Positions 28,516 through 51,840 of a stretch of DNA of 64,000 bases are shown one piece after another (position 1 is the first letter of the stretch; each line of letters begins with the position of its first letter). The DNA is from Candidatus Latescibacterota bacterium. Lineage in GTDB: Bacteria > Latescibacterota > UBA2968 > UBA8231. Below the pieces are notes generated by a model. That model did no database searches, had not been told where the DNA came from, and saw nothing but the letters and a program-made list of their open reading frames with translations. Location of the stretch: NCBI GenBank assembly GCA_007571365.1, contig RKRN01000109.1:31101-95100 (forward strand). Reading direction: 5' to 3'. Position numbers and translations under genes: made by a program.

Positions 28516-28614
28516 GGGAGCGGATGTGTGCCTGGTGGCTGCCGCGGACTTCAAATCCGTTGCGGCGTAGCGAGAGTTGCGCTGGGTGGGTTCGATTCCC
28601 ACACGTTCCCGCCA
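28516..28614 (+). tRNA. selC: tRNA-Sec(UCA)
   Basis: GGACTTCAAATCC anticodon arm, long variable arm, GGTTCGATTCC, acceptor GGGAGCG/CGTTCCC, GCCA end. Confidence 0.93.
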
Positions 28615-32404: not shown

Positions 32405-32573
32405 AGGGCGCGGATCACCCCCGCATGCTCAGGTCTCGCTACCGTCAATTGGCAGAGCACTAGTGGGCCAACCAGTTTAATTTGAAGGGTCGGGGTTTTT
32501 GTCGTATCCTTGCACGGCTTGGTTCAGCCAGCCGCGCCTAGCATTCACAATCCGCCGGGTGCTTGGCATTTCA

Positions 32574-34568: not shown

Positions 34569-36138
34569 CAGTCGTTTTTTCAGCATGACCAGTGCTAAGT
34601 TGCGTCGCCAATGCTGGTGCTGGCGACGGACAGCGCGCGGTGTCGTCGGCTGCGCGGCATTCGCCGTCTGCTTCTTGGTATGCCCCCAGACGCTTCTCAG
34701 CCAGGAGTCCGACGGACTCTTGGCCCGACAGAGTGAACACCACTACAGACTCGGTCTGCGCCATGTGCAGAGCGGTGACTTCCAGAGTGCCGAGCGGGAA
34801 TACAGGAAAGCGATCGCGATGGACTCGACCGACATCCGCCCGCGCGACGGCCTCGGTTTCATCTATGCTCTGCAGAACAGATTTCGAGAGGCAGAGGTAG
34901 AATTCGAGAGAGTACTGGAGATCGACCCCGACTACGCGCCGTCTCTCTACAAGCTGGGAAAGATCTTCCTGATCCGCCAAGATCGCGAAAAAGCGAAGGA
35001 TGCCTACGAAAGAGTGATCGCATCCGAGCCGACATACTTCCCTGCTCATCACGGGCTCGGCATGATCTACTCGCAGGAGGGAGAACCGACAGAGGCGGCG
35101 GAGCACTTCAAGACGGTGCTCCGGCTCAAGCCCGACTACGGCCCCTCTCGCTATCGACTTGGAGCCATCTATCTTCGAGAACAGAAATACGCTAAAGCGA
35201 TAGCAGAACTGCAGCGGGCTGCAAAGCTGGACGAGAATGAACCGTCGATCCACTACGTCTTGGGAAATGCGTACATGGCCATCGGCAGATTGAGCGAAGC
35301 GGCAGACTCATTTGCCGCAACCCTGCGGCTCGACCCCCGTCGTGCAGATGCACACGACAAGCTGGGGCTGGTCTACACCGAACAGTCACACGTGCCCTTG
35401 GGAGCGACAATGGCAGACCAGGACAAACTCGCGGCCGCCGTGGAGGAACACCGCAAGGCGGTTGCGCTGGCCCCCGACAACGGCTGGTTCCAGCACAACC
35501 TCGGCATGGCCTATGAGCGGCAGCGCAAGTACGAAAAAGCCGCGGCGCAGTACGGAAAGACCCTGACGGTGGATCCCGACCTTGGGTACACGCGCTATCG
35601 CCTCGGTATGATTTACTCCAGAAACAGGAAATACGAAGGGGCTATCGACCAGTACAGGCAGGCAATTGAGCGCGAGCCGGACAACACTCTCTTCCACTAC
35701 GCCCTAGGATCTGTGTACGACCGGACCGGAAGGGCCGAAGAGGCGATTGCGGAGTATGATAGGGCCATCGCGCTCGACTACTTCAACACAGAAGCGCATT
35801 TCGGTCTTGCCAATGCCTATTTCAAGCAAGGGAATCGCGCAGAGGGCGAGAGGGCGATGCAGATATTCCGGAAGCAGCGCGAAGGCAACATCGCCGAACT
35901 CGAACGCCGCGTCGTCCTAGTCCCCGACAATCCGCAGTTTCACTTCGAGCTCGCTGTGCAGTACTCCAGACAGGGACGGGACATCAGCGCCATCAGTGAG
36001 TACAAGCTCGCCATTGCTCTCGACCCGGCCAATGCCGAATACCATCGCCGTCTCGGCGACGCCTATCTGAAAACGGGCAGGTACCACGAAGCGGATGAGC
36101 AGTTCGAGATCGCTCGCCGTCTGGAGCCGGGACCATGA
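34552..36138 (+). CDS. Exported TPR protein
   Basis: About 12 regular TPR repeats; signal-like segment; start uncertain. Confidence 0.88.
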   Translation: MRWPIDSRFFSMTSAKLRRQCWCWRRTARGVVGCAAFAVCFLVCPQTLLSQESDGLLARQSEHHYRLGLRHVQSGDFQSAEREYRKAIAMDSTDIRPRDGLGFIYALQNRFREAEVEFERVLEIDPDYAPSLYKLGKIFLIRQDREKAKDAYERVIASEPTYFPAHHGLGMIYSQEGEPTEAAEHFKTVLRLKPDYGPSRYRLGAIYLREQKYAKAIAELQRAAKLDENEPSIHYVLGNAYMAIGRLSEAADSFAATLRLDPRRADAHDKLGLVYTEQSHVPLGATMADQDKLAAAVEEHRKAVALAPDNGWFQHNLGMAYERQRKYEKAAAQYGKTLTVDPDLGYTRYRLGMIYSRNRKYEGAIDQYRQAIEREPDNTLFHYALGSVYDRTGRAEEAIAEYDRAIALDYFNTEAHFGLANAYFKQGNRAEGERAMQIFRKQREGNIAELERRVVLVPDNPQFHFELAVQYSRQGRDISAISEYKLAIALDPANAEYHRRLGDAYLKTGRYHEADEQFEIARRLEPGP

Positions 36139-37862
36139 GCCGACACCGGATGGCTCGCCGATCTCGCCTCTACACCGCCGGGCTCTATTTTCTAATCTCG
36201 ATTTCCCCCTGTGGCCGCTCGCAGGCCGACGACGGGCTCGCGCTCGGTGCCCGCGTGCAGTTTGTCGATGTCGCGGCAGAGGTTGGCGTCTCCTTGATGA
36301 ACGTCTCCGGTGATGGCGAACAGCAGTACGTGGTTGATGCCTTCATAGGGGGGTCGGCCTTCTTCGACTACGATCGAGACGGGGACCTGGATCTGTACGT
36401 GCTGAACGGGTCGAGAGTGGGCGGCTTTCCCGGCCGGGATCGTCCGCGCAATGCCCTCTACCGCAACGAGGGCGCGACGTTTTCAAACCCCACAGAAGAA
36501 TCGGGCCTCGGGGACACCGGTTGGGGAATGGGCTGCGCCGTCGCCGATTACGACAACGACGGGGATGGAGACCTCTACGTGACCAACTACGGCAGCAATG
36601 CGCTGTACGAAAATCGGGGAGATGGAGCCTTTGCCGACGTCGCGCAGCGTGCCGGAGTCTTAGGAGATGAGGCATTCAGCACCGGATGTGCTTTCTTCGA
36701 CTACGACCGCGATGGCGATCTCGACCTGTACGTGGCGAACTACGTCGATTTCGATCACTTCATGGAAACCACTCCCGACAGGAGACACGAGTGGCGGGGG
36801 TTGACCGTCCATTTCGGACCGCATGGGATGCGGGGGGAGGGGGACGTATTCTACCGCAACGAAGGCGAGGGCGTCTTTTCCGATGCGACTGCCGTAGCCG
36901 GTCTTGTGGATCGCGACCTGCTGTACGGACTCGGTGTCGTGGCGGGAGACTACGACAATGACGGCGATTCGGATATTTACGTGGCCAACGATACGGGGCC
37001 CAACTATCTCTACGAAAACAGGGGCGACGGGACCTTTACCGACGTGGCCTGGATGAAGGGTGCGGCATACGGCGAGGGCGGCCAGTCACAGGGATGCATG
37101 GGTATCGCCTTCGGGGACTACGACAACGACGCGTATCTGGACATACTGGTCACCAACTTCTGGGAAGAGACGAACACCCTGTATCACAACGACGAAGGGC
37201 GGTTTTTCTCGGATCTCACTTTCGATGCGGGAGTGGGGTTGGCCAGCTTCCAGTTCCTCGCCTGGGGCACCGAGTTCTTCGATTACGACAACGACGGCGA
37301 CAAGGATCTCTTCGTCGCCAACGGCCATGTCTATCCGCAGGTCGACAGGGCAAACTTGGGAGTTAGCTATGCCCAGACAAATCAGCTATTCGAGAATATG
37401 GGGGATGGGACCTTTGCCGAAGTGTCCCTGATCTCGGGCGCGGGACTGCAGATCGAGAAGGTAAGCAGGGGTGCTTCTTTCGGGGATTACGATGGGGATG
37501 GCGACCTCGACATATTCGTTCTGGAGCTCAACGATCTCCCGACGCTGCTGCGCAACGACGGGGGCGATAGCAACAACTATCTGATAGTCCAGACGGAAGG
37601 CACAAAGAGCAACAGGGACGGCATAGGCACTCGGGTAAAACTCCGCTGCGGGGACGTGACTCAAGTGGGTGAGGTGCGGAGTGGCTCGAGCTATCTATCG
37701 CAGAACGACTCGAGGGTCCACTTCGGCTTGGGCGAGTGCATTACTGTAGCCCGGCTGGAGGTATTCTGGCCGAGCGGTCTAGTTGAGTGCTTTGAAGGTC
37801 TGGCCTCCAACAGGGTTCTGGTGATTCGCGAGGGAAGCGGAATCGTTCAGTCGAGCCAGTGA
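36135..37862 (+). CDS. CRTAC1/ASPIC-UnbV family FG-GAP repeat protein
   Basis: Repeated DYDNDGDxDLYV; C-terminal NRDGIG...SYLSQ...HFGLG...V.WPSG. Confidence 0.93.
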   Translation: MSRHRMARRSRLYTAGLYFLISISPCGRSQADDGLALGARVQFVDVAAEVGVSLMNVSGDGEQQYVVDAFIGGSAFFDYDRDGDLDLYVLNGSRVGGFPGRDRPRNALYRNEGATFSNPTEESGLGDTGWGMGCAVADYDNDGDGDLYVTNYGSNALYENRGDGAFADVAQRAGVLGDEAFSTGCAFFDYDRDGDLDLYVANYVDFDHFMETTPDRRHEWRGLTVHFGPHGMRGEGDVFYRNEGEGVFSDATAVAGLVDRDLLYGLGVVAGDYDNDGDSDIYVANDTGPNYLYENRGDGTFTDVAWMKGAAYGEGGQSQGCMGIAFGDYDNDAYLDILVTNFWEETNTLYHNDEGRFFSDLTFDAGVGLASFQFLAWGTEFFDYDNDGDKDLFVANGHVYPQVDRANLGVSYAQTNQLFENMGDGTFAEVSLISGAGLQIEKVSRGASFGDYDGDGDLDIFVLELNDLPTLLRNDGGDSNNYLIVQTEGTKSNRDGIGTRVKLRCGDVTQVGEVRSGSSYLSQNDSRVHFGLGECITVARLEVFWPSGLVECFEGLASNRVLVIREGSGIVQSSQ

Positions 37863-37895: not shown

Positions 37896-39527
37896 TCACA
37901 GTTTGCTTGAGGGCCATGCAAAAGGGTGCCGGCCGTCGTGCCCGTACGTGAAGAGCGCTGTCCGCCTCGGTGACTCGGCCTCCCAGCGGTACGCCCCGTG
38001 ACAGACCGTCCCTCCCAAAAAGAAGAGAACAGACCCGCGACGCATTGGAATGTGGCGGATCGGCGTGCGCTCGTTGCAGACCCGCACCGAATGCGGCAAG
38101 GGGTAGCACGATTTGTGACTGCCCGGCACTACGACAAATCCGCCATCGTCGGGCCCGACGTCGTTGAGCTGCCAGGCGACGTTGATGCCCGACCTCGTGT
38201 GTACGCGCCCGTTTACCATCTCGTAGTGCTTGCCGATGCCGGTCGGGTTGGCGTTTCCCGAGTGCAGCATTTGCCCGCTTGAGCCTTTGACGTGGCACAA
38301 GGCCGTGTTCTGAGTTACCCTGTACCCTGGTCCAATCATCCAGTTCAGGCGCTGGATGACGGCCGGGTGCGCCAGCATTTTGAGGAAAGGCGCATTGTGC
38401 GGCGCCGGTAGCTGAAACAAGTCCTTCAGGTCCGGCCGGCCCGTGCCCGATATCGTCGGCGCCCCAGGGATGTCGGCAAGCGTCACGTCCCCGTCAAGCT
38501 TGTCGCCTACGCCCCGGTACACTAGGTGATTGAGGTTGGCGTCGATGCCCGCCACGGCCGCATTGACCCAATCGTCGTCCATGACGCCCTCGACCAACAG
38601 GAAGCCCTGGGTGTCAAACGCCCAGCGCTCGGCATGATCATCTCGGCGTTCGAACTTGAGGGCAGAGGAGGCCCTCTGCGCCGCGTCGGCATCGGCGGCC
38701 GAGGTGAGCCAGGTGGTCGTGCCGTCCGATAGGAGCAGGCGACGCGAGTCGCCGCCCGCCAGCACGGTTTGCTCGGCCTCGCCCAGCCCTTCCGCCCATG
38801 CGGGCAGGGGCTGCTTGTCCGGCTGGTCAGGTGGCCCCTGTGGCCGAGCCGTGCGCGAAATGAAATTTACCACGAGTAGCTCGCCTCCGTCGCCCTGCGG
38901 GCAAACCCCGTGCAGTGTGCTGGCGGCGCACAGCAGCACGTCGCCCGCCGCCAGAGCCGGGCGCTCGGCGAAGCGGCTGGAGGATGGAAGCGGTGGGGCC
39001 GGCAGTCCGCTTTTGTGCGAGGAGGGCACGACCACCAGCGGGCACTTGCCTTCTGCGGAGTCCGCGAGGGCGATGGCCACCACCAGCCCTTGGCACTGCC
39101 GGATGCGGACCTCTTCCCAGGCGCCGCCGGCCCGCTGGAGCTGAGTTCCGTCGGCGTTGCGGCCATTCCACCCCGCCAGGTTGATGTACGCCCGGTCCAG
39201 CGTATGCACCCCGCCTTCCAGTCGCAGCGAGGCCTCGTCGTACCCTCCTGCGGCGGCAGAGACATGCCTCGCCGGGCCGTCTTGGCGAAAGCCGTCGCCG
39301 CACAACTCGCGCACATAGCGTCCGATGGCACCGGCCTCGCTGCAGAGATCGCCCAGCCCATCGCCGCTGTCGCGGCACGCGGACAGCTCGGCTTGGCTGA
39401 GGAGTTGTGGTAGCACGACGAACCCGAGCGCGTCGAAGGTGAAGTCCTGCTCTATGGTGAGGATCGATGGCTGGTGTACGTGCGTCGCCTCGTTCCAGTG
39501 GTTCACGGTGTAAGTGTCAATGCCCAT
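37896..39527 (-). CDS. Tandem-domain PhyH-like Fe(II)/2-oxoglutarate oxygenase
   Basis: Two copies of FDxxGF...VVP(G/S)SHKS...HG; C-terminal copy has HSG instead of HxD. Confidence 0.8.
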   Translation of the reverse strand: MGIDTYTVNHWNEATHVHQPSILTIEQDFTFDALGFVVLPQLLSQAELSACRDSGDGLGDLCSEAGAIGRYVRELCGDGFRQDGPARHVSAAAGGYDEASLRLEGGVHTLDRAYINLAGWNGRNADGTQLQRAGGAWEEVRIRQCQGLVVAIALADSAEGKCPLVVVPSSHKSGLPAPPLPSSSRFAERPALAAGDVLLCAASTLHGVCPQGDGGELLVVNFISRTARPQGPPDQPDKQPLPAWAEGLGEAEQTVLAGGDSRRLLLSDGTTTWLTSAADADAAQRASSALKFERRDDHAERWAFDTQGFLLVEGVMDDDWVNAAVAGIDANLNHLVYRGVGDKLDGDVTLADIPGAPTISGTGRPDLKDLFQLPAPHNAPFLKMLAHPAVIQRLNWMIGPGYRVTQNTALCHVKGSSGQMLHSGNANPTGIGKHYEMVNGRVHTRSGINVAWQLNDVGPDDGGFVVVPGSHKSCYPLPHSVRVCNERTPIRHIPMRRGSVLFFLGGTVCHGAYRWEAESPRRTALFTYGHDGRHPFAWPSSKL

Positions 39528-39674: not shown

Positions 39675-41336
39675 CTACCGCACGGCAAACGCTGCCTCGA
39701 GCCTGTGCTCGTGGATTGACACCTCTGACTCGTAGCGGCTGTGCAGTTCCTCCATGTATTCATTGAACGCGTTCCGGTGCCTCTCGCGTCTGAGCTGAGA
39801 TCGGACCCTCATCTCAGCTTCGGCGAAGGTCTCGCGCTTGCGTTCCCGGGAGAGCACTTTGAAGATGGAGTAGCCCTCCTGCACCTCGACCGGTCCGGTG
39901 AGCTCGCCGATTTGGGCCTCGACCGCAGCTTCCACGAAACCGCCGAACTGGGGCGATTCGTAACGATGCACGTGGAATCGACCCTCGTCATCGCGCACTT
40001 CGAGCGAGCGAATCGAATGTCTCTTCGCCAGATCGCCAAAAGCGGCACCGTCCTCGATCATCCCTTTCAACCGCAGTGCTTCCATTTCTGTTCTTACGAG
40101 GATCTCCTGTACCTCGGTCTGTTCGGGATGCAGGAATCTCTCGGCGTTGGCCTCGTAGTACTGGCGCAGGTCGTCTTCCGCGATAGTCACTCTCTCCTTT
40201 AATACCTTGGACCTGAGGCCCCGTACCAGCAACTGCTTTCCCTGCTCTTCGAGCCATCGGGCCACCATCTCTTCGCGATCGATCCCTTGGCGCCTAGCTG
40301 CCTCCTGAATCATCACGTCCGGGACGATGTACTGCTCGGCGAAGGAGATCACCTGCTCGGCGTCGCGGAATGTCTCCAGGATACTGCCCTTGCGGCTTTT
40401 GGTCGCGCCAATGAGGTCGGCGGCTGTGATCTCTCCGCCATCGTACTGGTAGAGTGCGATCGCAGATGGGGCCGGGCCGACGTCCACCGCACCGGTGCGC
40501 AGTGCCTCGACGACAGCGGCTATGGCGTCTCGGACCGGCTCGAGGCGGTATCTATCCCTCAATTCCGCTACCAGTTTGGCCTTCGCGATTCCGCGCTTCT
40601 TTCGTTCGAATTCTTTCGCGATTCTCGTCCGCTGCCGCAGATTGAGTTGAGCGGTCATCTCATCGAGGATCTTGAAGACGATGTATCGGTTGCCGATTCG
40701 GACAGGGTCTGACACCGATCCTTCCGTGAGCCCGAACAACTTCTCGGCGATGACGGGAATGATGTCGGCCTTGGTGGCGAACCGGCCGGTGTCTCCGCCC
40801 CGGGCAGCGGTCTCTTCGTTCATCGACAGCTTGTGCGCGACGTCGGCGAAGCTCGCCCCGGCCTCGATCTGTTTGGCGGCCTTCTCCGCCGTCTCAAGGT
40901 CGGCGACCACGATTTCTCCCAGTCTGATGGCGCGGGCGAGCCCCTCTTGGTCTATGTACTCTTCTACTTCACCGTCTTCTACCGTAGCCTCGATCGTTCT
41001 GCGCTCGTATTCATCGACGAGCTTGGCCTTCCTGATCCGGTTCATCTTGGTCAGGTAGGCCGAACTCCTATCGAAACCTTGGCTTCGGGCTTCCATCAGC
41101 AGCAGTTCCGTGTCGATCATGGTCTGCAGATGGACCCTCAACTGCTCCTTCCCGGCCTCTTCGCCCTTGGTGTGCTCGGGCAGTTTGGCGAGGAAACCTC
41201 GCACGTCCCGTACAGTAATCGTCTGGTCGCCAACCTCGGCGACCGTGGGATTTTCATCCTGCGGTCCGCAGCCGGTAAAAATTAAAAGGAGTGCTAGACT
41301 GATTAGCGTTCCGCAGGAAAGAGAAAAAACGCGCAT
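39675..41336 (-). CDS. Lipoprotein foldase with two parvulin PPIase domains (PrsA/SurA-like)
   Basis: GGAGG RBS, lipobox IFTGC, GASFADVAHKLS...GGDTG and GAAFGDLAKRHS. Confidence 0.88.
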   Translation of the reverse strand: MRVFSLSCGTLISLALLLIFTGCGPQDENPTVAEVGDQTITVRDVRGFLAKLPEHTKGEEAGKEQLRVHLQTMIDTELLLMEARSQGFDRSSAYLTKMNRIRKAKLVDEYERRTIEATVEDGEVEEYIDQEGLARAIRLGEIVVADLETAEKAAKQIEAGASFADVAHKLSMNEETAARGGDTGRFATKADIIPVIAEKLFGLTEGSVSDPVRIGNRYIVFKILDEMTAQLNLRQRTRIAKEFERKKRGIAKAKLVAELRDRYRLEPVRDAIAAVVEALRTGAVDVGPAPSAIALYQYDGGEITAADLIGATKSRKGSILETFRDAEQVISFAEQYIVPDVMIQEAARRQGIDREEMVARWLEEQGKQLLVRGLRSKVLKERVTIAEDDLRQYYEANAERFLHPEQTEVQEILVRTEMEALRLKGMIEDGAAFGDLAKRHSIRSLEVRDDEGRFHVHRYESPQFGGFVEAAVEAQIGELTGPVEVQEGYSIFKVLSRERKRETFAEAEMRVRSQLRRERHRNAFNEYMEELHSRYESEVSIHEHRLEAAFAVR

Positions 41337-41368
41337 CGCGTACCTCCACTCAAGCTCGCGTTGGTGCC

Positions 41369-44077
41369 CTAATCTAGACCGGCGTACACCGTGGCAAAGG
41401 TCACTCTGCCCGTCTTGGACTTGTCATCTATCGCTCTTCTCGTCAATCTCATACCCATCTTCGTCTCCAAGCGGTAACCTAGGTAACTGGTGTTGTTCGA
41501 GAACTGTATCGCTCCGACGATTTCACCGAAATCGTCGATCAGTCCCTCCTTGACCGCGGTCTCGGATTGGCGCAGTTGGTTGAAGATCGTGTACTCCACA
41601 CCGGCCTGCATGGAGGAAGAGGAAAACACCGGCCAGCGCGCCAGCAGGGAGAGTTGCACCGCGTTTTCCCGGCGCTTGGGATCGGATCTCAGGGCCGGGG
41701 ACTCGAGCCTAAGCTCATTCTTTATTCTCGGCATGAGATCGACATTGGCGACCTTGCGCTCGAGGTCCACCTTGTTGATGAGACCGAAGAAAGTGTAGTC
41801 CTCGCGCAGATCGGGCTGTCGTTCGTTCTGGTGCCAGCGATCGTATTTGAACTTACTCACGAAATTCACATCCTCGATCTTGGTGTACTTGAAGCTCAGG
41901 AACGTGGAGTTTATCCACGTGTCCTGAGCCGCCAAAGGATCGATGGTTGGAACGTTCCGCCGCTCGAACTCGCTCCACTGGCGAAGATCGTTCTCGATGG
42001 TGTCCTTGGCGATTCTGAAGTTCTCGTAGATTTTCAACCTGCCAAGACCCGGATAGTCCCGTTCGAGGGTGAAGAGCACGTAGTTCGTCGTGTTCTCCCC
42101 GTCGCCGGCAATCAGTCTCTCATCCGTTCGTCCGACGATCAGCCTGATGCCCGGCAGCAGGTCGACGCCGCCGTAGATGTTGTACCCTCGGTGGTCCCTC
42201 GGATAGGGAAAATCCGGCTCGTCGTCGTTTTCGAACCGATCTACCCAAGTATTGTTGTTCATATCCAATCCGAACAGGTACTCCGGCCGGTCTGTTCCGT
42301 ATCTCAAGAACGGCTCGTCGTAGTCCGGGACGAGATTGGGCAGATCTTCGCTGTCGTTCTGGTTAAAATCGGATATGAAGTCGAGGTTTTCGTCGTACCC
42401 GGGAAACACCTCGGTGTCTATGTTTTGGAATATCCTCTGCCAGTCGGGGAATCGGTCCTGATCGTCGTTGTCGTCGACGAGTTCATAGAAGAACCTCCCC
42501 TTGTCTGCGTAGTCTATGTTGGTCTCGCCCCTGGCCAAGATGGTGCTGGTGTTGTAGTTGTGGGCCATGCTATAGGCTTCGCCGAAGAAGAAGAACGGAT
42601 GGGCGATCTTCGACAAGTTCAACATCCAGCCATCGCCTTCGTCGGAGGTCCCTAGGTGCTCGGTATGCGCCCTGTTGGGGTACTTCCTATAACTGATGCT
42701 GCGATCCCATTCCCCATATAGGTTGAATCCCCAGACGCGGGTTGCCTCCAGCGTGAACCCGAATAGCTCGGTAGCCGTCGGCAGACCATACGGGATCTTC
42801 AGGATGGTCAGGTTGGAGCCATCTTTGACGTTTTCAGCGGCCCTAGCAGCCAGCAGATAGACGTTGGCCAACTGCCTGTCGAACTGGCGGTCCGAGGTTA
42901 TCTCGATCCGGTAGTCGTTGGCGACTACCAACTCGAATGTCACCTTTCTTATCTCTGACGGATCCGGGCCCGTGTACGTCCCCACCGAGAAGTCGTAGAC
43001 CAATTCGATCTGCTCGGAGCCGTTCGCCTCCCAGAACCCCAGCTTCTGAAAGCCGCCTTGGGGCGCGGGAATCAGCCCGACTTCGCTGGCCCGGACGGTC
43101 TCCCTGTCGAAACGCACATCCCCCCTCGCATCGATCGTTTCGACGTCGGCCTCTATGATCAGGTCCCACGCAAACAGCGCGGCGCCGCCTTCGTTGTCCT
43201 CGGGCGAGTCGTCCGAGAGACGCACGAAGACTTGGGCGACGTTCTCCGCATTCTGACTGGAGACGATCGAACCGCTTCGCGGGCTGCCCTCGAAGGCGTC
43301 GATGAGTTGGGAGGAGTTGTGGGCGCTCACGTAGTTGGCACCGAGTCTGAGATAATCTCCAATCTGGGTCGTCGCGCGTCCGCCGGTCAGGGTCGTCGTG
43401 CTCGTCGTCTGGTTACTGGGGCTTCGCGGGCCGGCGGCACCCAGCGAGCTGATCCGCGAGAGGAGAGCCGTGGCCTCGTACTTGTCGGACTGATAGTCGA
43501 TCTGGATGCCATCGAACGCCGGCTTGGAGAAGGTCATCGGGGTCAGGGTTGACCGAATCTCGTCCCCTATGGTGATGGCCAGATTGTGCTGTCCCTTCTG
43601 ATCGGAGGCTATGACCAGATTGCTGAACCACTGTTGGAACCGTTCGGTCTTGAACAGGTTGCTTCCCCCCTGCTGGGGCTGGGTCTGGCTCCAGTCGTAG
43701 ATCAGCCATCCTCTGGTGATGTACGAACCGTAGATGTCGTAGAAGTAGTCCCCCTCGAGATTGGTCGTTACATAGCGCTGGTAGTGGTCTCTCGCGTAGT
43801 TGCTGTACTCCCACTGCTTCCACTGATATTCGCGAAACAGCTCCTGTGGAACGTACCACTTCTTGACCGCCGGGTCTAGCGCACCGAATAGGACGCCGGG
43901 CCCGGTCGGTTCGAACGTGAGCTCGCCGCCGCGGCGAAACCCCGTTATCCGATCTCGATCGGGACCTTGGGCTTCCGAGCGAGTACTGTACAGCAGGATT
44001 ACCGAGACGATGATGCACCACGTGGCCAGCGTACCGGCTAGGCGCATCGCACCTCTGACTCTATGACCGGTCACCAT
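41369..44077 (-). CDS. Large exported protein, putative outer-membrane beta-barrel with acidic Ca-binding insert
   Basis: RBS GGGGGAG before ATG 44077; signal peptide; many amphipathic aromatic strands; C-terminal TFATVYAGLD. Confidence 0.65.
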   Translation of the reverse strand: MVTGHRVRGAMRLAGTLATWCIIVSVILLYSTRSEAQGPDRDRITGFRRGGELTFEPTGPGVLFGALDPAVKKWYVPQELFREYQWKQWEYSNYARDHYQRYVTTNLEGDYFYDIYGSYITRGWLIYDWSQTQPQQGGSNLFKTERFQQWFSNLVIASDQKGQHNLAITIGDEIRSTLTPMTFSKPAFDGIQIDYQSDKYEATALLSRISSLGAAGPRSPSNQTTSTTTLTGGRATTQIGDYLRLGANYVSAHNSSQLIDAFEGSPRSGSIVSSQNAENVAQVFVRLSDDSPEDNEGGAALFAWDLIIEADVETIDARGDVRFDRETVRASEVGLIPAPQGGFQKLGFWEANGSEQIELVYDFSVGTYTGPDPSEIRKVTFELVVANDYRIEITSDRQFDRQLANVYLLAARAAENVKDGSNLTILKIPYGLPTATELFGFTLEATRVWGFNLYGEWDRSISYRKYPNRAHTEHLGTSDEGDGWMLNLSKIAHPFFFFGEAYSMAHNYNTSTILARGETNIDYADKGRFFYELVDDNDDQDRFPDWQRIFQNIDTEVFPGYDENLDFISDFNQNDSEDLPNLVPDYDEPFLRYGTDRPEYLFGLDMNNNTWVDRFENDDEPDFPYPRDHRGYNIYGGVDLLPGIRLIVGRTDERLIAGDGENTTNYVLFTLERDYPGLGRLKIYENFRIAKDTIENDLRQWSEFERRNVPTIDPLAAQDTWINSTFLSFKYTKIEDVNFVSKFKYDRWHQNERQPDLREDYTFFGLINKVDLERKVANVDLMPRIKNELRLESPALRSDPKRRENAVQLSLLARWPVFSSSSMQAGVEYTIFNQLRQSETAVKEGLIDDFGEIVGAIQFSNNTSYLGYRLETKMGMRLTRRAIDDKSKTGRVTFATVYAGLD

Positions 44078-44105
44078 GTGACTCCCCCTTACCTTTCGCG
44101 AAAAA

Positions 44106-45851
44106 TCAATAGACCAAAGGCAAGATCGCAGTCTTGCTTTCCTTACCTGTATCTGCAGCGACTTCCACGCGCACGAGGTAGACTCCCGGCGATAGCATTT
44201 GTCCGTTGTTGTCCGCGCCGTCCCAGATTCTCTGATATCTTCCACTGATGTCGAGGTCGGAGTAGAGCACCCTTTTGCGGTGGCCGGCGAGGTCGTAGAC
44301 TTGTACCGACACCAGAGTACTGCTCGTCAGGTTAACGATATCGTAGGTGACAATGGCTTGGTCGTTCACTCCATCGCCATTGGGCGTAAACGGAGCCGGG
44401 GCAGCCTCGAGGAAGTAGATGCGGTTGCCGGCGACCCGGGTGGTGACCGACAGGTCGTCGCCCACGGCGACGGGGTCGGCGTCCACGTCTCCCGGGACGA
44501 GCGTCTGCGGCAGGTTCTGCGGTCTCTGGGTATCGAAGACCCGGCCGACGAAGACGGTGTTGTAGTGCAGCGCGATGCTCTCGAACACGACGCGCAGCAG
44601 CCGGTCGTCGCCGGTGATCCTCGGGAAGCTGATTCGGACGCCGCCGATGTCGCCGTTTTCTTCTTCGATGTCCTCCTTGTCCCACGCCACGTCGGTCCCG
44701 TCGATCTGGACGGATCGGATGACCTCCACTGGTGCCTGCGTCTCGATGTCGAGCCGGTCGAAGCCACTGCTGTTGTAGCAGCGTACCCAGTAGGTCAGCT
44801 CGGTCGTCTGCCCGATCACGGCGTCTTGGGGCCACACCTCCCCTACCACGGAATCGGCCAGTGCTGGCGAGACCTCCACGGCGATCGAATCGACCGTCGC
44901 TGCCGAAAGGATGTCGCTGCTCTGGAACAGAACGCGAAACTGCCAGTACTGGCGAGGTGCAGGTGATGCGATCTGCGTGCGGACGCTGGCCGGATAGGGA
45001 CGAGACCATCCGCTCCACTTTAGGCTATCGCTCGGGTCCGGCGTACTGCCGCTCCGGGTGGATACGGTAGCAGATACTTTGGTAGGCTCTCCTATCGTCT
45101 TCTTTGCCCACATTATACTGCCAAAGACGGCCGGCCGACCTTCGTCGAACACCTTCGAGGTGTACGCAGCAGCCGATACGAACCCTTCGCCGAAGACCTC
45201 GAACTCGTCGATCTCCCATTCCCCCCGAACGAGCTGTTTCACCTCTATAAAACGCACGAACTGCAGCGGCACATCCATGTCGACGACCGGGTCATCATTG
45301 CGCTCGACGGCCCTGAAGAGCCTGAGATCGGGATTACCGGAGAGGGTCTTCTGCGCCTCGCTGCCGTCGTTCAGCGATACCTCGTACCCTTTTAGAAAAA
45401 ACTCCTCGAACCCTTCGCGGGGGTAAAACCTGATCCTGTTGATTCCGAAACGCTCGCCCAGATCAAATCTCAGTATGATCCCTGTGGCCGACGGGATCTT
45501 GATTTCAAAGGCCGTGTTCCTGCCGTCCACCATGTTGTCCAACAAGTCCTCGAATTCACTCTGGGTGACTTCGAGGACCGTGCGTGCATTTGGCGACGTT
45601 ATTTGCCCCCCCCTTTCGATCAACTTCAGGGAGATATTGTCTTCAGGATCGTTCTGTAAAGGTTGAATGGAACCGGGGTTGGCTGCGAAATCGATGACCG
45701 CTATGTCAGAATGTGCCTGATCCCAGGCGCGGGAACCCGGGCCACCTCCGAAGACGATCGTCTCTCCATTGCCTGCCGCCGCAAGTCCGAGGAGAGCTAC
45801 GGACAGAACGGGCAGGGCCACTGTTCTATGAGGTAATGTTCCAGTTATCAC
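44106..45851 (-). CDS. Secreted protein with discoidin-like domain and FlgD-Ig/T9SS type-B-like C-terminal domain
   Basis: PAPFTPNGDGVND...VYDLAG...WDGADNNG..LSPGVY; start re-set to GTG 45851 (upstream ORF part is a shadow of the neighbour). Confidence 0.8.
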   Translation of the reverse strand: MITGTLPHRTVALPVLSVALLGLAAAGNGETIVFGGGPGSRAWDQAHSDIAVIDFAANPGSIQPLQNDPEDNISLKLIERGGQITSPNARTVLEVTQSEFEDLLDNMVDGRNTAFEIKIPSATGIILRFDLGERFGINRIRFYPREGFEEFFLKGYEVSLNDGSEAQKTLSGNPDLRLFRAVERNDDPVVDMDVPLQFVRFIEVKQLVRGEWEIDEFEVFGEGFVSAAAYTSKVFDEGRPAVFGSIMWAKKTIGEPTKVSATVSTRSGSTPDPSDSLKWSGWSRPYPASVRTQIASPAPRQYWQFRVLFQSSDILSAATVDSIAVEVSPALADSVVGEVWPQDAVIGQTTELTYWVRCYNSSGFDRLDIETQAPVEVIRSVQIDGTDVAWDKEDIEEENGDIGGVRISFPRITGDDRLLRVVFESIALHYNTVFVGRVFDTQRPQNLPQTLVPGDVDADPVAVGDDLSVTTRVAGNRIYFLEAAPAPFTPNGDGVNDQAIVTYDIVNLTSSTLVSVQVYDLAGHRKRVLYSDLDISGRYQRIWDGADNNGQMLSPGVYLVRVEVAADTGKESKTAILPLVY

Positions 45852-45889
45852 TTGCTGAACCCAGGCTCCTTGGTGTCCTGTCGCGGAAA

Positions 45890-48607
45890 CTAGTAGGCGA
45901 CGCGCACCAATCGGTGGATCGAGGTTTTCTTTTTCGACGTCGAATCCACTTTTAGGTCGATGTGCATCAGATAGATCCCCGGTGGTACGACCGCTCCCGA
46001 TTGGTCGACGCCCGTCCACGCCACCGTATGACGGCCTGCCGTTATGGTCGTCTCGGCTATACGCGCCACCGGCCGGCCGGCCAGATCGTACACGTCCACT
46101 TGGACCGGCGCTGAACTGAGCACCCGCATCAGCGAAAAACGGACCTCCAGCTCGTCGTTGACGCCGTCGCCATTGGGCGTGAAAACGCGATCGACCTGTA
46201 GATCCCCTAGCAACTCGCCGCGCTCCAGTGCCAACACCACCGTCGTCTCGCTGTCCACAACCCCGTTGGCATCGCCGTCGTCTACCCGCTGCCACGAGTT
46301 CTCGAACTGCGAGTGCCCCATGGAACCGATGAAAAACGTGTTGAACCCGAATATGGTCGCCTCGAACTGGAGCTCCACCAGCGCGGATCCCCTTATCGTC
46401 TTGATCGGGGCCGGCAGACGCACCCACAGCGAATCCGTCTCCATCACCACCTCGAACCCCTCGCTCTCGGCTGTATACGTTACGGCGTCCTGCCCCGTCA
46501 CGTCGACATGCACCTGTTTCAGCGTCATGTCGACGCCCTCGGGTCCCTCAATGAGGATCTCGTCGAACCCCCCGCTGCCCGCGTCGAAGGTCGGGCGGAT
46601 GAAATACGACATTTGCTGCTTCGTGCCGATCTCCTCCAGGCGCGAGGGCAGTATCTCGCCCACGATCGCGCCGGCCACCGGCGTCACGAAGTTCAGCACC
46701 ACCGAACGCAGCGTGGCCGCCGCCTTGGGGTCTTCCGTCAGGAAGATCGCCCTGATGGCGACGAACCGTCTGGGACTGGGCGAGGTAATTTTTGCGCCTG
46801 AATCGAAGTAGGGCTGACTCCAGCCGCTCCAGTCATTGCCCGGGCGCGTCTCGGTTAAGACCGGCCCTACCGAAGCATCCCCGAAGAACTTTTTGTCCGT
46901 CTCCCAGGCCTCGGCCGCCTCCTCTTCGGTGCCCGGATACAAATCCCCGTTCTTCTTGTAGTAGCGGGTTATGCTCTCGACCGTATCGCCGGTCCGGGTT
47001 TGCAAGATCAGCTCCGTACCCGGCGGCACATCGGCCTCCCACTCGATGGTAGCCAAGTTCTGAGGGGTCCGCGCCACCTCTATGAACGGGGCCTCCCCTC
47101 CGAACTCGGACGAGATCTGCGACTCCGGCAGGAATCCTTCCCCGAAAAACTGGACCTCCGACACCCCGTGGCTCCCTTGCCCGGGCTCGTACGTAGAGCG
47201 GTCGTGGAGCCTATAGGTAAAGGCAAAATGCTCAACCTTCGTGAGCGGGAACTTGAAGTCGTGGAAGTTCTGCCCCCGCACGATGTCGCTGAGCGACCCC
47301 ACCGTCTTCCAGGCTAGTTCGCCGCCGGCATTGGTGGAGCCGTCCGAGAGTTGAATGCGGTAGGCTCTGAACGGAGGTGGGTTGGGGAGGGCGTGGAGTA
47401 TTCTGATATTGTCCACAAAGTAGGAGCCTCCGAGATCTATGAACATCGAGCGCTCCGCATCCCGCGGATCCGCAATCGGCAACCTGTTGGGATCGTAACT
47501 CCCGTTGGCAGACCAGAACACGACCTCGCCGAAGAGGTCCCCATCTACCACGGCCGCCCCCTTGTTGACATTCTCCCGGGCGGTCACCCTGCCGCCCCGC
47601 TCCAGTACGCCCGTGCCGATGTTGTCGCCGATGGTCCAGACCTCGATCTCGGCCAGCCTGGGTATTTCGCGGCGGTAGTAAACCACCGGCCCCTGCCGCT
47701 CGGTGCCCGCCAGAGCTTCCCAATCCTCTTTCCCATCCAGCAACCTCACCGTCCCCGACACTTCTCGCCGGAAGTACTCTATCTCTCCCTGTTGATCGGC
47801 TGGCAAACTATCGTATTCGGACTGAGAAACCTGCCTCGCCCTGCCGAAGTCGCTGTCCGTGATCCCCACCCCGACGTATTGGATGACGTCGCCGGTGAAG
47901 TCGCCCAGTGCATCGGGCCACTTCGTCGGTAGCTGTCCGGTCAGGTCGATCTCGAAAACCCGCTCGTTCTTGTTCGGGCCGTCCGTGGTGAAGCGCGTCC
48001 GGAAAAGGAGCTGACCGAGCGTTTTCTGTCCCTGTGAAGTGATCACCTTGAACTGCAGAAAAGGGTCTCCCAGCTCTTCACCGACAAACTTGAGGACGAT
48101 CTTGGTGGCCGATACCGTCCGCCCCAGATCGATCTGCACCCACCAGTCCTGCAACAGGTCGGAGGGGTCCGGTTCCCAGAAGGTGTCCATCCTGCCATCC
48201 ATGAGGTCGATGCCGCCCGAGCGATTAGACCCGGCATTCAACACACCGCCGCCGAAATCGACGGCATTGAGGACGGCGTTGATGCCTGGAACCACGACTT
48301 CTTCATCTTCTATTTGCAGTCCCGTGTGCTTGCGGATGAAGGCGGGTTTCACTCCCTCATCGCCGATCTGGACCGTGTTGGCAGCGGAGTGCCAGTGTTC
48401 CCAATGCGCCCTAGAATCGACGACCACTCTGCCTGAACCCAGGGAGTACCCCTCCTGTCCCCAGCACAGACATGCCGCCGACAACGTCAACGCGGAACAG
48501 ACGAGTGCCGTGCGGAGGGGGGCCGCTAGCCGTTGAGCGCCGACCCATCCCCGCTCGCGGTGCCTACCTACGCTGCGCGGCACTCGGGTTCTTGTCGAGT
48601 TCAGCAA
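45890..48607 (-). CDS. Secreted protein with two discoidin-like domains and FlgD-Ig/T9SS type-B-like C-terminal domain
   Basis: MDGRMDTFW...IDLG twice; VFTPNGDGVND...VYDLAG...PPGIY; AAGGAG RBS before TTG. Confidence 0.8.
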   Translation of the reverse strand: MLNSTRTRVPRSVGRHRERGWVGAQRLAAPLRTALVCSALTLSAACLCWGQEGYSLGSGRVVVDSRAHWEHWHSAANTVQIGDEGVKPAFIRKHTGLQIEDEEVVVPGINAVLNAVDFGGGVLNAGSNRSGGIDLMDGRMDTFWEPDPSDLLQDWWVQIDLGRTVSATKIVLKFVGEELGDPFLQFKVITSQGQKTLGQLLFRTRFTTDGPNKNERVFEIDLTGQLPTKWPDALGDFTGDVIQYVGVGITDSDFGRARQVSQSEYDSLPADQQGEIEYFRREVSGTVRLLDGKEDWEALAGTERQGPVVYYRREIPRLAEIEVWTIGDNIGTGVLERGGRVTARENVNKGAAVVDGDLFGEVVFWSANGSYDPNRLPIADPRDAERSMFIDLGGSYFVDNIRILHALPNPPPFRAYRIQLSDGSTNAGGELAWKTVGSLSDIVRGQNFHDFKFPLTKVEHFAFTYRLHDRSTYEPGQGSHGVSEVQFFGEGFLPESQISSEFGGEAPFIEVARTPQNLATIEWEADVPPGTELILQTRTGDTVESITRYYKKNGDLYPGTEEEAAEAWETDKKFFGDASVGPVLTETRPGNDWSGWSQPYFDSGAKITSPSPRRFVAIRAIFLTEDPKAAATLRSVVLNFVTPVAGAIVGEILPSRLEEIGTKQQMSYFIRPTFDAGSGGFDEILIEGPEGVDMTLKQVHVDVTGQDAVTYTAESEGFEVVMETDSLWVRLPAPIKTIRGSALVELQFEATIFGFNTFFIGSMGHSQFENSWQRVDDGDANGVVDSETTVVLALERGELLGDLQVDRVFTPNGDGVNDELEVRFSLMRVLSSAPVQVDVYDLAGRPVARIAETTITAGRHTVAWTGVDQSGAVVPPGIYLMHIDLKVDSTSKKKTSIHRLVRVAY

Positions 48608-48675
48608 TACTTCTTTCTCCTTATCTCGCTCCCGAGCTTGCGCTCCGCTCGTGTCGGAAACGCCGTTGAGTGCCG

Positions 48676-48715
48676 AAAAAAGGGGGGGCGAGGATCAACG
48701 ATCTCGCCCCCCCTT
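48676..48715 (-). terminator. Strong intrinsic terminator inside the minus-strand operon
   Basis: GGGGGGGCGAG...CTCGCCCCCCC stem followed by U6 on the minus strand. Confidence 0.85.
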
Positions 48716-48755
48716 CAACAACAGCCGTCCTGGGTCCTTATAGCCGACCTTTCTC

Positions 48756-49673
48756 CTATTTGGAGAAGCCCGCCTTAATGCGGCCCCAGCTATCGTCCTC
48801 GACCGCTGTGGCGTCGGTGTCGGACACCCAGTTGTTTGCGTCAAAACCAAGTAGCACGTAGTCCACTAGGGAGTCGGCGTGGAAGTACATGTTGATGTCG
48901 CCCGTGGAGACCCAGTAGCCGTTGTACGAATTGCCCGGGCCGTTGTCATCGTCCTGAATGGCCATGCCGATGCCCATGACCTGGCCTTCCTCCAAGTCGT
49001 GGATAATCAGGTCGGGATCGTCGGAACCGGTCGAACTGGCAGGCAGGTCGTCGAAGGTGGTGAACCAACTCTCCTGATAGAGGGTGGCGGGTCCACCGGC
49101 CTCGCCCTCAACGTCCCATCTGATGCCGGCGTAAGGCTCCACGGAAGCCCATACTCCGCCGCCCCACAACCACAGGTTGTTGTCCGCGTTATTGAGCGAC
49201 TGCTGCCAGTCCTGCGCGGTGGCCCCGGCCCATCGCGCCGGATCTAGGTCGATAGATTCCACGCCTTGGAACTGTCCGCCGCTGTGGTCGGCATCAAGCA
49301 CGAGCTCGAGTTTGTCGTTAGTGTCGTCGAGGGTGCCGTACCAGACGTCGTCGAACCTTTCCTCCATGACGTACACAAGGTTGGTCTCTGGGTGCCAGCC
49401 GACGATGATGCGCTCGGCGAGGTTGCCCGGATCCGGGTCGCCTTGGGTGCCCGTGACGACCTCGACCAAGTCATCTTGGGTTACCCAGAAGACAGACGGT
49501 ACGTTGTCCCAATCGCTGAGATCACCGTCCATCACGACGTCCCTGATTCCATCGACGTCGATGGGCACCTGTACCGCCGCCCAGTTCCGGTCTGTCCGCT
49601 GGTGGGCCGAACTCGGGGTAAAGGAGGCGAGAACGAGGCCCAAAACGGTAGCTATAACGATAATCCTCTTCAC
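48756..49673 (-). CDS. Secreted acidic CBM9/DOMON-like protein with C-terminal TAVE..SWGRIK tail
   Basis: AAAGGAG RBS, GTG start, signal peptide MKRIIVIA...SSA; MDGDLSDW; ends TAVEDDSWGRIKAGFSK. Confidence 0.8.
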   Translation of the reverse strand: MKRIIVIATVLGLVLASFTPSSAHQRTDRNWAAVQVPIDVDGIRDVVMDGDLSDWDNVPSVFWVTQDDLVEVVTGTQGDPDPGNLAERIIVGWHPETNLVYVMEERFDDVWYGTLDDTNDKLELVLDADHSGGQFQGVESIDLDPARWAGATAQDWQQSLNNADNNLWLWGGGVWASVEPYAGIRWDVEGEAGGPATLYQESWFTTFDDLPASSTGSDDPDLIIHDLEEGQVMGIGMAIQDDDNGPGNSYNGYWVSTGDINMYFHADSLVDYVLLGFDANNWVSDTDATAVEDDSWGRIKAGFSK

Positions 49674-50406
49674 TGTTGCTTCTCCTTTCATCTGGGAGAT
49701 GATGACTGCTGCTACTGCGTTGATTCCTGAAATGCGGGTTTTGCTTTTAAACACCTCCTTTCAGCGCGCCATTCGCTCAGCGAACGAGAGCAAACGAGAA
49801 CTGGTGGTTTTGTGCAAATTAGCTCTCGCCGCTGTTTTTATTAGTTGCTGTAAATAAATAGCTTACGGTCTTATGGATGAATGACCTGCGTTTATCTATT
49901 TATTGAAACAATGAAGCAATGAGCGTTAATATGAGGAAATTTGCCCGGAAGTCCAAGAAAAACTTCCAGCATGTTGATGCCCCAAATCCACCCCGCTGAC
50001 CGGGCCTGTCCTCACGTCGGACCTCGGCAGCTATGCTTCGTTGGGGTTTACCCCCAGTTTGCCCAGAGTTTGCCTAGGGTCGGTTCCTCGAAGCCGACCG
50101 GGTGATGTCCTCGAAGCGTCCCCTGTAGAGCGTATTGCTACGAGGCGTTATAAACACTATCGGGGTATCCATTTAACCGGACCTAGGGTATCTTACGTAG
50201 GAGCGCAGAACATGAGATGGCGAACCGGGCCTGGGTACTTCTCGTGCAGCATCTCTATCTGCGAGATGGGCGGGGCCTACAATCTCGTCCCGCCCGCCGG
50301 CACGTTTGGAGACATCACGGGTCGATCTATCCGTCAACACGGCGGTGGAGGGCGAAGCTCGGTCGCTGCTGCCTCCTCACTTGGGTAGTTCCTTAGTAAG
50401 GTGTAG

Positions 50407-51840
50407 ATGATGCAGGCACAAACAGGGCAAACCATTAAGTGGTCTAGAAAAACTACCATATTCATTGACATCCTTTTGGTTATTACCCCCTTTCTACTGC
50501 TTATAGGACTAGAGATCTATTTGCGGCATACTGATTACGGCCTTGATGACAGGCTATTTATCCCTCAAAGCTCTTCTTTCACGTACCAACTTAATCAGGA
50601 GTTGTACCGAAAGTATTATTCAATTAATAATCCCATGCTTAAACAGCTAATTCCCAAGGTAAGCATGAAACAGCAGAAATCCGAAAAGGATTTTCGCATC
50701 TTTTGTCTTGGGGGTTCAACGACAAGAGGGCCGTTTCCTATGCTACTTCACGAATTATTAAAACGTGCCAAAGTGGATAAGACGGTAGAAGTGGTTAACT
50801 TAGGAATAGATACTTTTAATAGTTACCAGGTCCTCGACATTACAAAAAAACTTCCTCAGTACGATCCCGATCTTTTGATCATTTATATGGGACATAACGA
50901 AATTTATGGACCATACGGTGCAGCATCGAATGTGGCATTGGGCACGTCTCGTAACGCAATCAATCTAATTTTGCGATTACGCGAGATTAAGATATTTCAG
51001 CTAGCAAACAACTTTTACTCAAAGTTAGGAGCACCTTCTAATCAATTTGAAAAGGAACGATCGCCATATAGAATGATGGTAAACAGTTCCCTTGCCCCTC
51101 ATCATCCTCTACGGGAGCAAGCCATTGAGAATTTCAGGGGAAATCTCCGCGAAATTATCTCTATTGCAAAGCGTCATCAAATCCCTGTGGTTTTAGGGAC
51201 GATCGTTGCCAATCTTCGAGATTGGTGCCCATTTGACTCAGAACCGCCGCCATCTTCCCTCGACGTTACCCAATGGCAACAGTTGTTAGAGAATGGCAAG
51301 GCTGCATTTGAACAAAGTCATCTAGAAGAGGCGGAACGCATCTACCAGACAGCAATTGAACTTTTCCCAGATCATGCCCAAACTCATTTTGATCTAGGTC
51401 ATGTTTACCTTGCCCAAGGACATCAAGATAAAGCTAAACGATCCTTCACAATAGCAAGAGACTTGGATATTTTACCGATCAGAGCTTCATCAGAGATAAA
51501 CGAAACGATAAAAAGTGTTGCTAAGGAAACAGACATCATATTAGCAGACCTTGAAACCGTATTCCAAAATTGCGATCCCAAGAGTGTGATTGGCAAACCA
51601 ATGATTGTTGAACACCTGCATCCTTCAAATGAAGGATATTATTTAATCGCAAGCCATCTGACCCACATCATTCTTAAAGAAGGGTTTTTGGCGGCGAGTA
51701 AAAGGTTGAATTTTGACGATCCATCGTTAAAAAGAGAACTGGATATAGGAGAATTGAACAAAGAGGACCTCGTTCGACTCAGACTTATGTTGAAGATCTG
51801 GCCATTTAACATTAACAATGAAGGTTATCAGTATCCTTGA
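50407..51840 (+). CDS. Membrane-anchored SGNH/GDSL hydrolase with TPR insert (low GC)
   Basis: GGSTT, GHNE and EHLHP blocks; TPR pair; markedly AT-richer than flanks. Confidence 0.82.
   Translation: MMQAQTGQTIKWSRKTTIFIDILLVITPFLLLIGLEIYLRHTDYGLDDRLFIPQSSSFTYQLNQELYRKYYSINNPMLKQLIPKVSMKQQKSEKDFRIFCLGGSTTRGPFPMLLHELLKRAKVDKTVEVVNLGIDTFNSYQVLDITKKLPQYDPDLLIIYMGHNEIYGPYGAASNVALGTSRNAINLILRLREIKIFQLANNFYSKLGAPSNQFEKERSPYRMMVNSSLAPHHPLREQAIENFRGNLREIISIAKRHQIPVVLGTIVANLRDWCPFDSEPPPSSLDVTQWQQLLENGKAAFEQSHLEEAERIYQTAIELFPDHAQTHFDLGHVYLAQGHQDKAKRSFTIARDLDILPIRASSEINETIKSVAKETDIILADLETVFQNCDPKSVIGKPMIVEHLHPSNEGYYLIASHLTHIILKEGFLAASKRLNFDDPSLKRELDIGELNKEDLVRLRLMLKIWPFNINNEGYQYP

Follow-up and report, generated by a model that had tools for sequence, protein, structure and literature searches.

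A recurrent gene module in Latescibacterota pairing discoidin proteins that end in type IX-type domains with a predicted outer-membrane barrel of an unnamed family

The window analyzed here is a stretch of 64,000 nt (contig RKRN01000109.1, forward-strand positions 31,101 to 95,100) from the genome of a Candidatus Latescibacterota bacterium, and its subject is a run of five co-oriented minus-strand genes, g1 to g5, which the list of open reading frames places in the region 39675–49754 (all coordinates are those of the window). Read in their own direction, they encode W (g1, 48756–49673), a secreted acidic protein recognized by its open reading frame, start, isoelectric point (pI) and homologues; the discoidin (F5/8 type C) protein D1 (g2, 45890–48607, 905 aa), to which Pfam assigns a CHU_C/FlgD_ig-type C-terminal domain; its shorter paralogue D2 (g3, 44106–45851, about 581 aa), directly upstream of the barrel gene; B (g4, 41369–44077, 902 aa), a predicted outer-membrane β-barrel of an unnamed family; and P (g5, 39675–41336, 553 aa), a lipoprotein with a SurA-N-like region and two parvulin domains. 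We use W, D, B and P for the corresponding families. From g2 through g5, neighboring genes either overlap or are separated by 32 nt, an operon-like spacing, and g1 is separated from them by an intrinsic terminator on the same strand (48673–48716), a G+C hairpin at about 48679–48716 followed by a U run, with a fold energy of –36.7 kcal/mol (z = –6.0; none of 200 shuffled sequences was equally stable). A simple consensus scan did not pick up this terminator, and the consensus scans ran at chance level both for promoters (3 vs. 3.1 expected) and for terminator-like sites (11 vs. 8.9 expected). An earlier reading made from the letters of the window (the sequence-only reading) had described a five-part co-oriented cassette with a terminator, and all of these parts are indeed present on the minus strand.

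The two D proteins of the module are paralogues (30% identity over 343 aa, E = 8e–35) that share a discoidin domain, the motif FTPNGDGVND and a C-terminal domain scoring above the Pfam CHU_C cutoff of 27 bits (34.5 bits in g2, 32.0 in g3), which also matches FlgD_ig (34.1 bits in g2). The discoidin models PF22633 (37.3 bits) and PF00754 (31.5 bits) match g2 above their cutoffs. An AlphaFold2 model of g3 built on 48 sequences, with a predicted local distance difference test (pLDDT) score of 89.7, is all-β and comprises CBM32-like, immunoglobulin (Ig)-like and CHU_C-type domains. When its profile was compared with solved structures, CBM32-type discoidin modules of glycosidases (4lks, E = 6e–6; 2v72, E = 3e–5) and the FlgD Ig domain 3osv (E = 2.7e–10) were found, while Foldseek matched the model only to lectin or Ig-like parts of larger proteins (the N-terminal region of galactose oxidase, ScpA and PorU) and returned no catalytic domain; we therefore take D to be a binding protein rather than an enzyme. 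Across the genome, 83 CHU_C rows lay above the cutoff; 76 of them belonged to D-family frames, and for 53 a B gene was no more than 10 kb away. The corresponding count for type-A tails (TIGR04183) was 67, with only 7 in D-family frames and 9 near B, the type-A tails belonging to some 60 other proteins. Taken together, the two counts indicate that the D tail forms its own class, the one carrying Pfam's type IX CHU_C signal.

The product of g4 has a signal peptide and no match to any Pfam family, even at E = 10, or to any NCBIfam family. The sequence-only reading had recognized no PorP/SprF, usher, SusC/TonB-box or SusD motif in the cassette, and for g4 the two databases agree, with no model match for PorP/SprF, usher, POTRA, two-partner secretion (TPS), TonB-dependent receptor (plug or barrel) or SusD. 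At least 970 homologues exist, none of which bears a functional name. An AlphaFold2 model built on 57 homologues (pLDDT 78.2, predicted template modeling score 0.75) has some two dozen long antiparallel strands or more, together with a β domain inserted at residues ~282–430 and a long loop at ~505–628. Conservation across the family peaks in an Asp/Asn-rich loop (530–628), where D536, D562, D570, D605 and D613 are invariant and many more residues nearly so; the DxNxDG-like spacing of this loop recalls calcium-binding loops. Foldseek against the PDB placed SlpA, MtrB, LptD, FimD and porins at the top (E from 2e–9 to 1e–4), with template modeling (TM) scores of only 0.12–0.25; for the closest structural neighbors, Deinococcus SlpA, MtrB, LptD and FimD (E from 2e–9 to 9e–9), TM-scores of 0.17–0.25 and identities of 6–10% amount to a likeness of fold class only. 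All 50 entries listed by VIA-align were membrane β-barrels, namely outer-membrane proteins and three mitochondrial SAM-complex entries; the best was 7zgx_A (Z = 13.6, 437 residues aligned, root-mean-square deviation 7.2), FimD (Z = 9.2) did no better than porins, and structures of TonB-dependent receptors (Z = 9–11) matched as generic barrels. By sequence, the g4 profile found among solved structures only a chance-level match to a restriction enzyme subunit (E = 0.01). On its predicted fold B is a large outer-membrane β-barrel of a family without a name, in keeping with the earlier suggestion that the 900-aa protein is a membrane barrel.

Two leads on further barrels were set aside. The family DUF6029 (PF19494), an Atlas lead at 0.88, matched one other frame in a genome search and none of the 56 B frames found there, and an 880-aa protein elsewhere in the window (28650–31292), considered as a second barrel, had a best local match to g4 of only 29 bits. 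A distant barrel subfamily, 24–28% identical to g4, occurs as tandem triplets behind a D gene on four contigs of the genome. A complex prediction joining B (residues 88–902) to the g3 tail (466–580) scored 0.00 against a mark of 0.32; it was run with no controls and counts neither way.

The lipoprotein P has the lipobox LIFTGC and two parvulin stretches, each matched by both Rotamase_2 (78.9 bits) and Rotamase (66.5 bits), the two models scoring above their cutoffs, together with a SurA_N_3 match of 22.9 bits that falls just under its cutoff of 27.2. It aligns with the PrsA and SurA models of NCBIfam, with all scores far under the equivalog cutoffs. The two parvulin domains and the SurA-N-like region liken it to the SurA, PrsA and PpiD chaperones. 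Known bacteria keep one or a few housekeeping copies of such parvulin chaperones, whereas P has 32 paralogues in one genome, most of them within modules.

Translation of W starts at a GTG behind AAGGAG and yields, in the 301-aa reading, a protein of pI 4.05 (55 D+E vs. 11 K+R) with a signal peptide whose predicted cut is ...SSA|H. A lipobox and a type IX secretion system (T9SS) domain are both absent. No Pfam or NCBIfam model exists for W, and the CBM9/DOMON-like model PF06452 does not match g1 itself; among its 143 homologues PF06452 was present on 3 of the 10 weakest listed, and CBM9_1 was matched by 5 of the 38 aligned family members (best E = 6.9e–6). The W profile found one weak match among solved structures, a xylanase chain (E = 0.022). 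A CBM9/DOMON-like fold is thus probable for W, judging from its relatives. With the CBM32-type discoidin of D and these CBM9 matches, the sequence-only reading's idea of subunits that capture glycans fits what the homology predicts. In all 38 W sequences a His directly follows the predicted signal-peptide cut, and the His of DADHSGG is likewise invariant. An N-terminal His together with a second His recalls the copper histidine brace of lytic polysaccharide monooxygenases and CopC-type proteins.

The C-terminal end of g1, TAVEDDSWGRIKAGFSK, is conserved in the W alignment as a tag with the consensus T-A-V-E-x-x-S-W-G-R-I-K-A-x-F, reaching 3–9 residues beyond the K and with no hydrophobic helix beyond it. 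In the window's genome the pattern WG.[IVL]K falls within the last 20 residues of 56 frames of at least 100 aa, vs. 6.4 expected. Of 57 tagged frames of at least 80 aa, 31 are from the W family and 26 are not; 20 of these 26 were scanned, giving four PD40 propellers, one each of FGE-sulfatase, fasciclin, Cache and temptin-C, 11 frames without a family and one long PIN-domain frame, possibly a merged or chance frame. Because it sits on several unrelated domains, the tag behaves as a modular C-terminal tag, and it is carried also by proteins encoded away from any B gene. Tagged proteins with PD40, FGE-sulfatase, fasciclin, Cache or temptin-C domains were noted on seven contigs of the genome. Of 121 genomes of the phylum, 46 contain a strict DNA pattern for the tag and none its reversed form; the pattern was absent from all 44 genomes of families f2–f4 and from all 13 of family f10, although f10 has B and W. 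We know of no described sorting signal that resembles it.

Copies of the five proteins were sought by BLASTP against all stop-to-stop frames of the window's genome (5.47 Mb in 344 contigs, 91.7% complete), D being counted only where alignments reached at least 180 aa. The families comprise 56 frames for B, 32 for P, 29 for W (39 with a profile) and 127 for D, together 9.4% of the assembly. The cassette, whose uniqueness had been implied, is therefore only one of dozens of paralogous loci in its own genome. A D frame lies within 10 kb of 53 of the 56 B frames and directly upstream of 30 of them; conversely, 84 of the 127 D frames have a B gene within 10 kb, and the zone so defined takes up 12.7% of the genome.

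Conservation of the arrangement across species was assessed with B as bait, in the best 80 of 528 B relatives (one genome per species; several loci share genomes and are not independent). By label 63 of these loci are Latescibacterota or Latescibacteria, 14 Gemmatimonad-type, and one each Handelsmanbacteria, Planctomycetota and ‘uncultured bacterium’, which agrees with the proposal of a lineage outside Bacteroidota. D was present at 79 of the 80 loci, P at 70 and W at 65, with all three at 59; in the 63 loci with full 10-kb flanks the counts were 63, 62, 56 and 55. The families thus recur together more often than chance would have it, and the homologues are not scattered: synteny is conserved, as the sequence-only reading had anticipated. 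A D gene stands directly upstream of a co-directional B gene in 76 of the 80 loci. The order W-D-D-(D)-B-P is kept where B is 62–91% identical, while at remoter paralogous loci the order is shuffled and the families are kept.

In a phyletic survey of the same 121 genomes of the phylum, where related genomes are not independent so that the outcome is a pattern rather than a test, B was matched in 72, D in 70, W in 68 and the T9SS protein SprA in 116. All four were present in each of the 40 genomes of family f1. In families f2 (29 genomes), f3 (13) and f4 (2), SprA was found in every genome and B, D and W in none (44 of 44 vs. 0 of 44 taken together). Elsewhere B and D agreed in all families except f7, whose single genome had B but not D, and f10, where B was found in 13 and D in 12 of the 13 genomes; W was not found in f5, f7 and f14, where B was found. 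The pattern of B, D and W differs from that of SprA; it shows the module to be an add-on to a T9SS background, in which B, D and W come and go jointly. A reader might still ask whether there is any functional unit here at all, or just a common porin that lies near abundant secreted proteins by chance or genome crowding: with as many as 127 D frames, 84 of them within 10 kb of a B gene, a degree of adjacency is to be expected. This explanation, already disfavored, is very improbable given the directly upstream, co-directional D gene in nearly every related locus, the order kept among orthologous loci down to 62% B identity, the shared phyletic pattern, and the small part of the genome (12.7%) that is so close to a B gene.

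The bacterium is regarded as sponge-associated. The window is present whole in one sponge-metagenome run, which is possibly its source, and 0.58–0.66 of its words occur in two more runs of the same study. Contigs from four RNA libraries, of four studies, contain 88–99% relatives over 25–30 of 30 bins, a hint that relatives are expressed, with the reservation that RNA-library contigs may include DNA. In three of the four libraries contigs were far deeper over g1 (48718–49690) than over g2–g5 (280 vs. 5–17 in one instance), and one contig ends at 48725, beside the terminator. This hints at a separate, abundant g1 transcript; contig depth can neither rank genes nor prove transcription.

The genome also holds core T9SS genes, for which a check had been proposed: SprA as an open frame of 2156 aa (606.5 bits) and PorU (617 bits), whose neighbor is a PorV-like gene (142 bits, short of its cutoff of 250). 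Four further PorV-like (FadL-type) frames scored 24–53 bits, on four contigs, and might represent PorQ/PorP-like shuttles that escape the PorP models. With these genes present, and with D ending in a type IX secretion-type domain, the sequence-only reading's picture of a self-contained system does not hold. The same facts bear on an alternative in which B itself would export and assemble W and D, usher- or two-partner-like and independently of the T9SS, with P as a dedicated foldase. B is large enough for a translocation pore, FimD, PapC and FhaC/CdiB are among its fold matches (Z = 9–12.6), P accompanies it at most related loci, and W, lacking lipobox and T9SS domain, nonetheless has a conserved C-terminal tag that something must read. 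However, SprA occurs both here and nearly throughout the phylum, D has its T9SS-type end, B is matched by none of the usher, POTRA and TPS models, its fold matches are of a kind shared by barrels at large (porins reach equal scores), and the tag occurs also on proteins encoded away from any B gene. Chaperone-usher systems differ also in that the putative chaperone beside B is a parvulin lipoprotein and not PapD-like. We judge export by B to be improbable.

The reading that we prefer, at a probability of roughly 0.45, is that B plays the part of PorP/SprF for D cargo and that the module builds glycan-binding surface complexes on top of the T9SS. D would cross the outer membrane through SprA, after which B, the product of the next gene downstream, would take it over and keep it on the cell surface in the manner of PorP/SprF. 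The short C-terminal tag TAVExxSWGRIKxxF would bring W to this complex or to the surface, and the SurA/PrsA-like P would act as a periplasmic chaperone for barrel or cargo. Once assembled, the complexes may recognize glycans or glycoproteins and so serve capture or attachment within the sponge matrix, with many diverged paralogous loci supplying different specificities. Gene order supports the analogy: type-B cargo genes are described as preceding porP/sprF-like genes, the same order as D-then-B (PMC12618676, in the part of the article available), and PorP-like proteins as binding and anchoring type-B cargo (PMC9143113, likewise from an excerpt). In the accessible portion of PMC11285876, several FCB (Fibrobacteres-Chlorobi-Bacteroidetes) phyla are listed as possibly having a T9SS, Latescibacterota not among them.

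Several observations weigh against this assignment of roles. No sequence relation links B to PorP/SprF, whose proteins are about a third of its length. D tails score 16.2 and 19.8 bits with TIGR04131, the NCBI type-B model, under its cutoff of 35, and they resemble FlgD Ig domains and type-A tails as well (TIGR04183 on g3, 18.1 bits vs. a cutoff of 23; g2 was unlisted), so that it is Pfam's CHU_C by itself that gives the D tail its class. D frames outnumber B frames, 127 to 56, and a one-to-one pairing therefore does not hold. Co-occurrence at paralogous loci reflects shared descent and is no proof of physical contact. The PorP/SprF models TIGR03519 and PF11751 had no match in the genome, although it holds at least 83 CHU_C tails; the 14 control genomes were also silent and this genome is 91.7% complete, and true absence of PorP/SprF is consequently not shown. 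TIGRFAM searches of the genome for GldL and GldM were without a match too, again with silent controls, which leaves the motor part of the T9SS not shown.

A last point on that side comes from a recurrent companion, which fits uptake at least as well as display. On the minus strand of the window, at 53523–55553, lies a gene for a polytopic membrane protein with DUF6785 and DUF6784 (430.9 and 102.1 bits in Pfam) and 11 hydrophobic segments. Relatives are present at 34 of the 80 related loci, where they often follow the D genes immediately and in the same orientation, and 14 of its 45 paralogues in the genome have a B gene within 10 kb (vs. the 12.7% of the genome that is so placed). Outside its own families the nearest Atlas clusters are ‘peptide transporter’ and OPT, at 0.77–0.79, which serve as a lead only; an inner-membrane permease is possible. 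B might accordingly form an uptake channel that works without TonB and corresponds in function to SusC, with D and W catching ligands, P handing them on and the DUF6785/6784 protein importing them. The massive expansion of the families, reminiscent of polysaccharide utilization loci (11% of the assembly once DUF6785 is included), and the lectin-type character of the partners speak for this, as does a report of glycoside hydrolase enrichment in sponge Latescibacteria (PMC8163846, from the part of the text available). To see what else accompanies paralogous loci, we scanned 48 accessory frames from 16 stretches around them (of 176 candidate frames), obtaining about 11 TPR proteins, three FG-GAP/ASPIC proteins, two sulfatases, two PhyH and two DUF4159 proteins, one 3-keto-disaccharide hydrolase and one sodium:solute symporter. 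The sulfatases, the hydrolase and the symporter would suit uptake. No glycoside hydrolase family occurred among the 48, however, and a classical polysaccharide utilization locus with such enzymes was rejected on that basis; B has no plug, TonB box or energy-coupling part recognizable with Pfam or NCBIfam; and uptake alone does not explain the strict D-then-B order or the split in tail classes. We consider uptake by B doubtful but possible, and compatible with the anchoring role, since both can be true.

A tentative and, as a whole, rather unlikely combination of the two roles would make the module the Latescibacterota counterpart of the utilization loci of Bacteroidota, phylum-wide and repeated 40–60 times per genome. 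The 900-aa barrel would replace PorP/SprF as receiver of type-B-like T9SS lectins and would also serve as the gate to an OPT-like permease; the 15-residue tag TAVExxSWGRIKxxF would recruit a second class of proteins including W, whose two invariant His residues may form a copper histidine brace; and each locus would have its own SurA-like lipoprotein.

Against systems already described, the closest comparison for our preferred reading is type-B T9SS cargo with PorP/SprF, as in SprB-SprF of Flavobacterium johnsoniae and PG1035-PorP of Porphyromonas gingivalis. The likenesses are a CHU_C-type tail with FTPNGDGxND in the cargo, a barrel gene directly downstream of the cargo gene (here 76 of 80; the rule is that of PMC12618676 as far as its available text goes), several cognate pairs per genome, and SprA and PorU in the cell. 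The differences are that B has ~900 aa and no PorP/SprF model match, that the D tail is under the NCBI type-B cutoff, that each genome here has dozens of loci rather than about a dozen, that there are extra partners (W with its new tag, the double-parvulin lipoprotein and often the DUF6785 protein), and that the phylum is Latescibacterota. SusC/SusD loci of Bacteroidota similarly set a large outer-membrane barrel and surface glycan-binding proteins side by side, in dozens of diverged copies that make up about a tenth of the genome; they differ from the present module, in which no TonB plug or barrel model, SusD or glycoside hydrolase was found (48 neighbors scanned), and whose binders are T9SS-type proteins and not lipoproteins.

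A T9SS cargo with a cognate outer-membrane partner is a known kind of arrangement; the component families here are undescribed. No source that we found gives these proteins a functional name, and neither B nor W has a Pfam or NCBIfam model. A full-text literature search, with subscription journals outside its scope, turned up no paper in which Latescibacter* occurs along with ‘type IX secretion’, ‘T9SS’ or ‘DUF6785’. No such system is mentioned in the available portions of a study of Latescibacteria genomics (PMC4454575) or of one on sponge metagenome-assembled genomes (PMC8163846), and in the available text of the PAUC34f paper (PMC7081726) the searched terms occur only once, in the reference list. 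That no name, Pfam model or paper was found accords with the sequence-only reading, which had called the system undescribed.

Members of the same families are encoded on the opposite strand nearby. The plus-strand cluster next to the module includes a protein with a W-family body (31289–32404; 29% identity over 295 aa to g1) that ends in a PKD domain (PKD_4, 52.8 bits) instead of the WGRIK tag, and which the W profile matches without the tail; a third D paralogue of 689 aa (32499–34568; 27% identity over 446 aa to g2, E = 2e–38; CHU_C 39 bits); a TPR protein (34552–36138), assigned by Pfam, with relatives at 34 of the 80 related loci and 42 paralogues in the genome; and an FG-GAP/ASPIC protein (36135–37862), likewise assigned, with relatives at 35 loci and 46 paralogues. 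Heading this cluster is the gene for the 880-aa protein mentioned above (28650–31292, plus strand), which has no Pfam family; the genome encodes a single distant paralogue of it, and none of the 80 loci contains a relative. Just upstream of this 880-aa gene is a tRNA-SeC gene (anticodon TCA; 28516–28614, plus strand), and a tRNA-Gln lies at 22162–22236. Genes for PhyH-type dioxygenases (37896–39527 and 56548–57363, both minus strand) flank the module; such genes have 18 paralogues in the genome and relatives at 7 of the 80 loci. A GDSL-lipase/TPR gene (50407–51840, plus strand) stands out by a low G+C content (0.459 vs. 0.58–0.64 around it) and has relatives at 15 of the 80 loci.

Work on the T9SS has dealt almost entirely with Bacteroidota; in the present phylum it seems to be coupled to a barrel family without a database name. 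If B is a receiver for type-B-like cargo, an unrelated kind of barrel can serve as a cargo-specific shuttle, which bears on how T9SS cargo is sorted and anchored. The WGRIK tag is a candidate for a new sorting signal. If B is also a channel, abundant, uncultured bacteria of sponges and sediments would have a TonB-independent route of nutrient capture. The unnamed B and W, the DUF6785 companion and the poorly described D account for a large share of the ‘hypothetical’ genes of the phylum.

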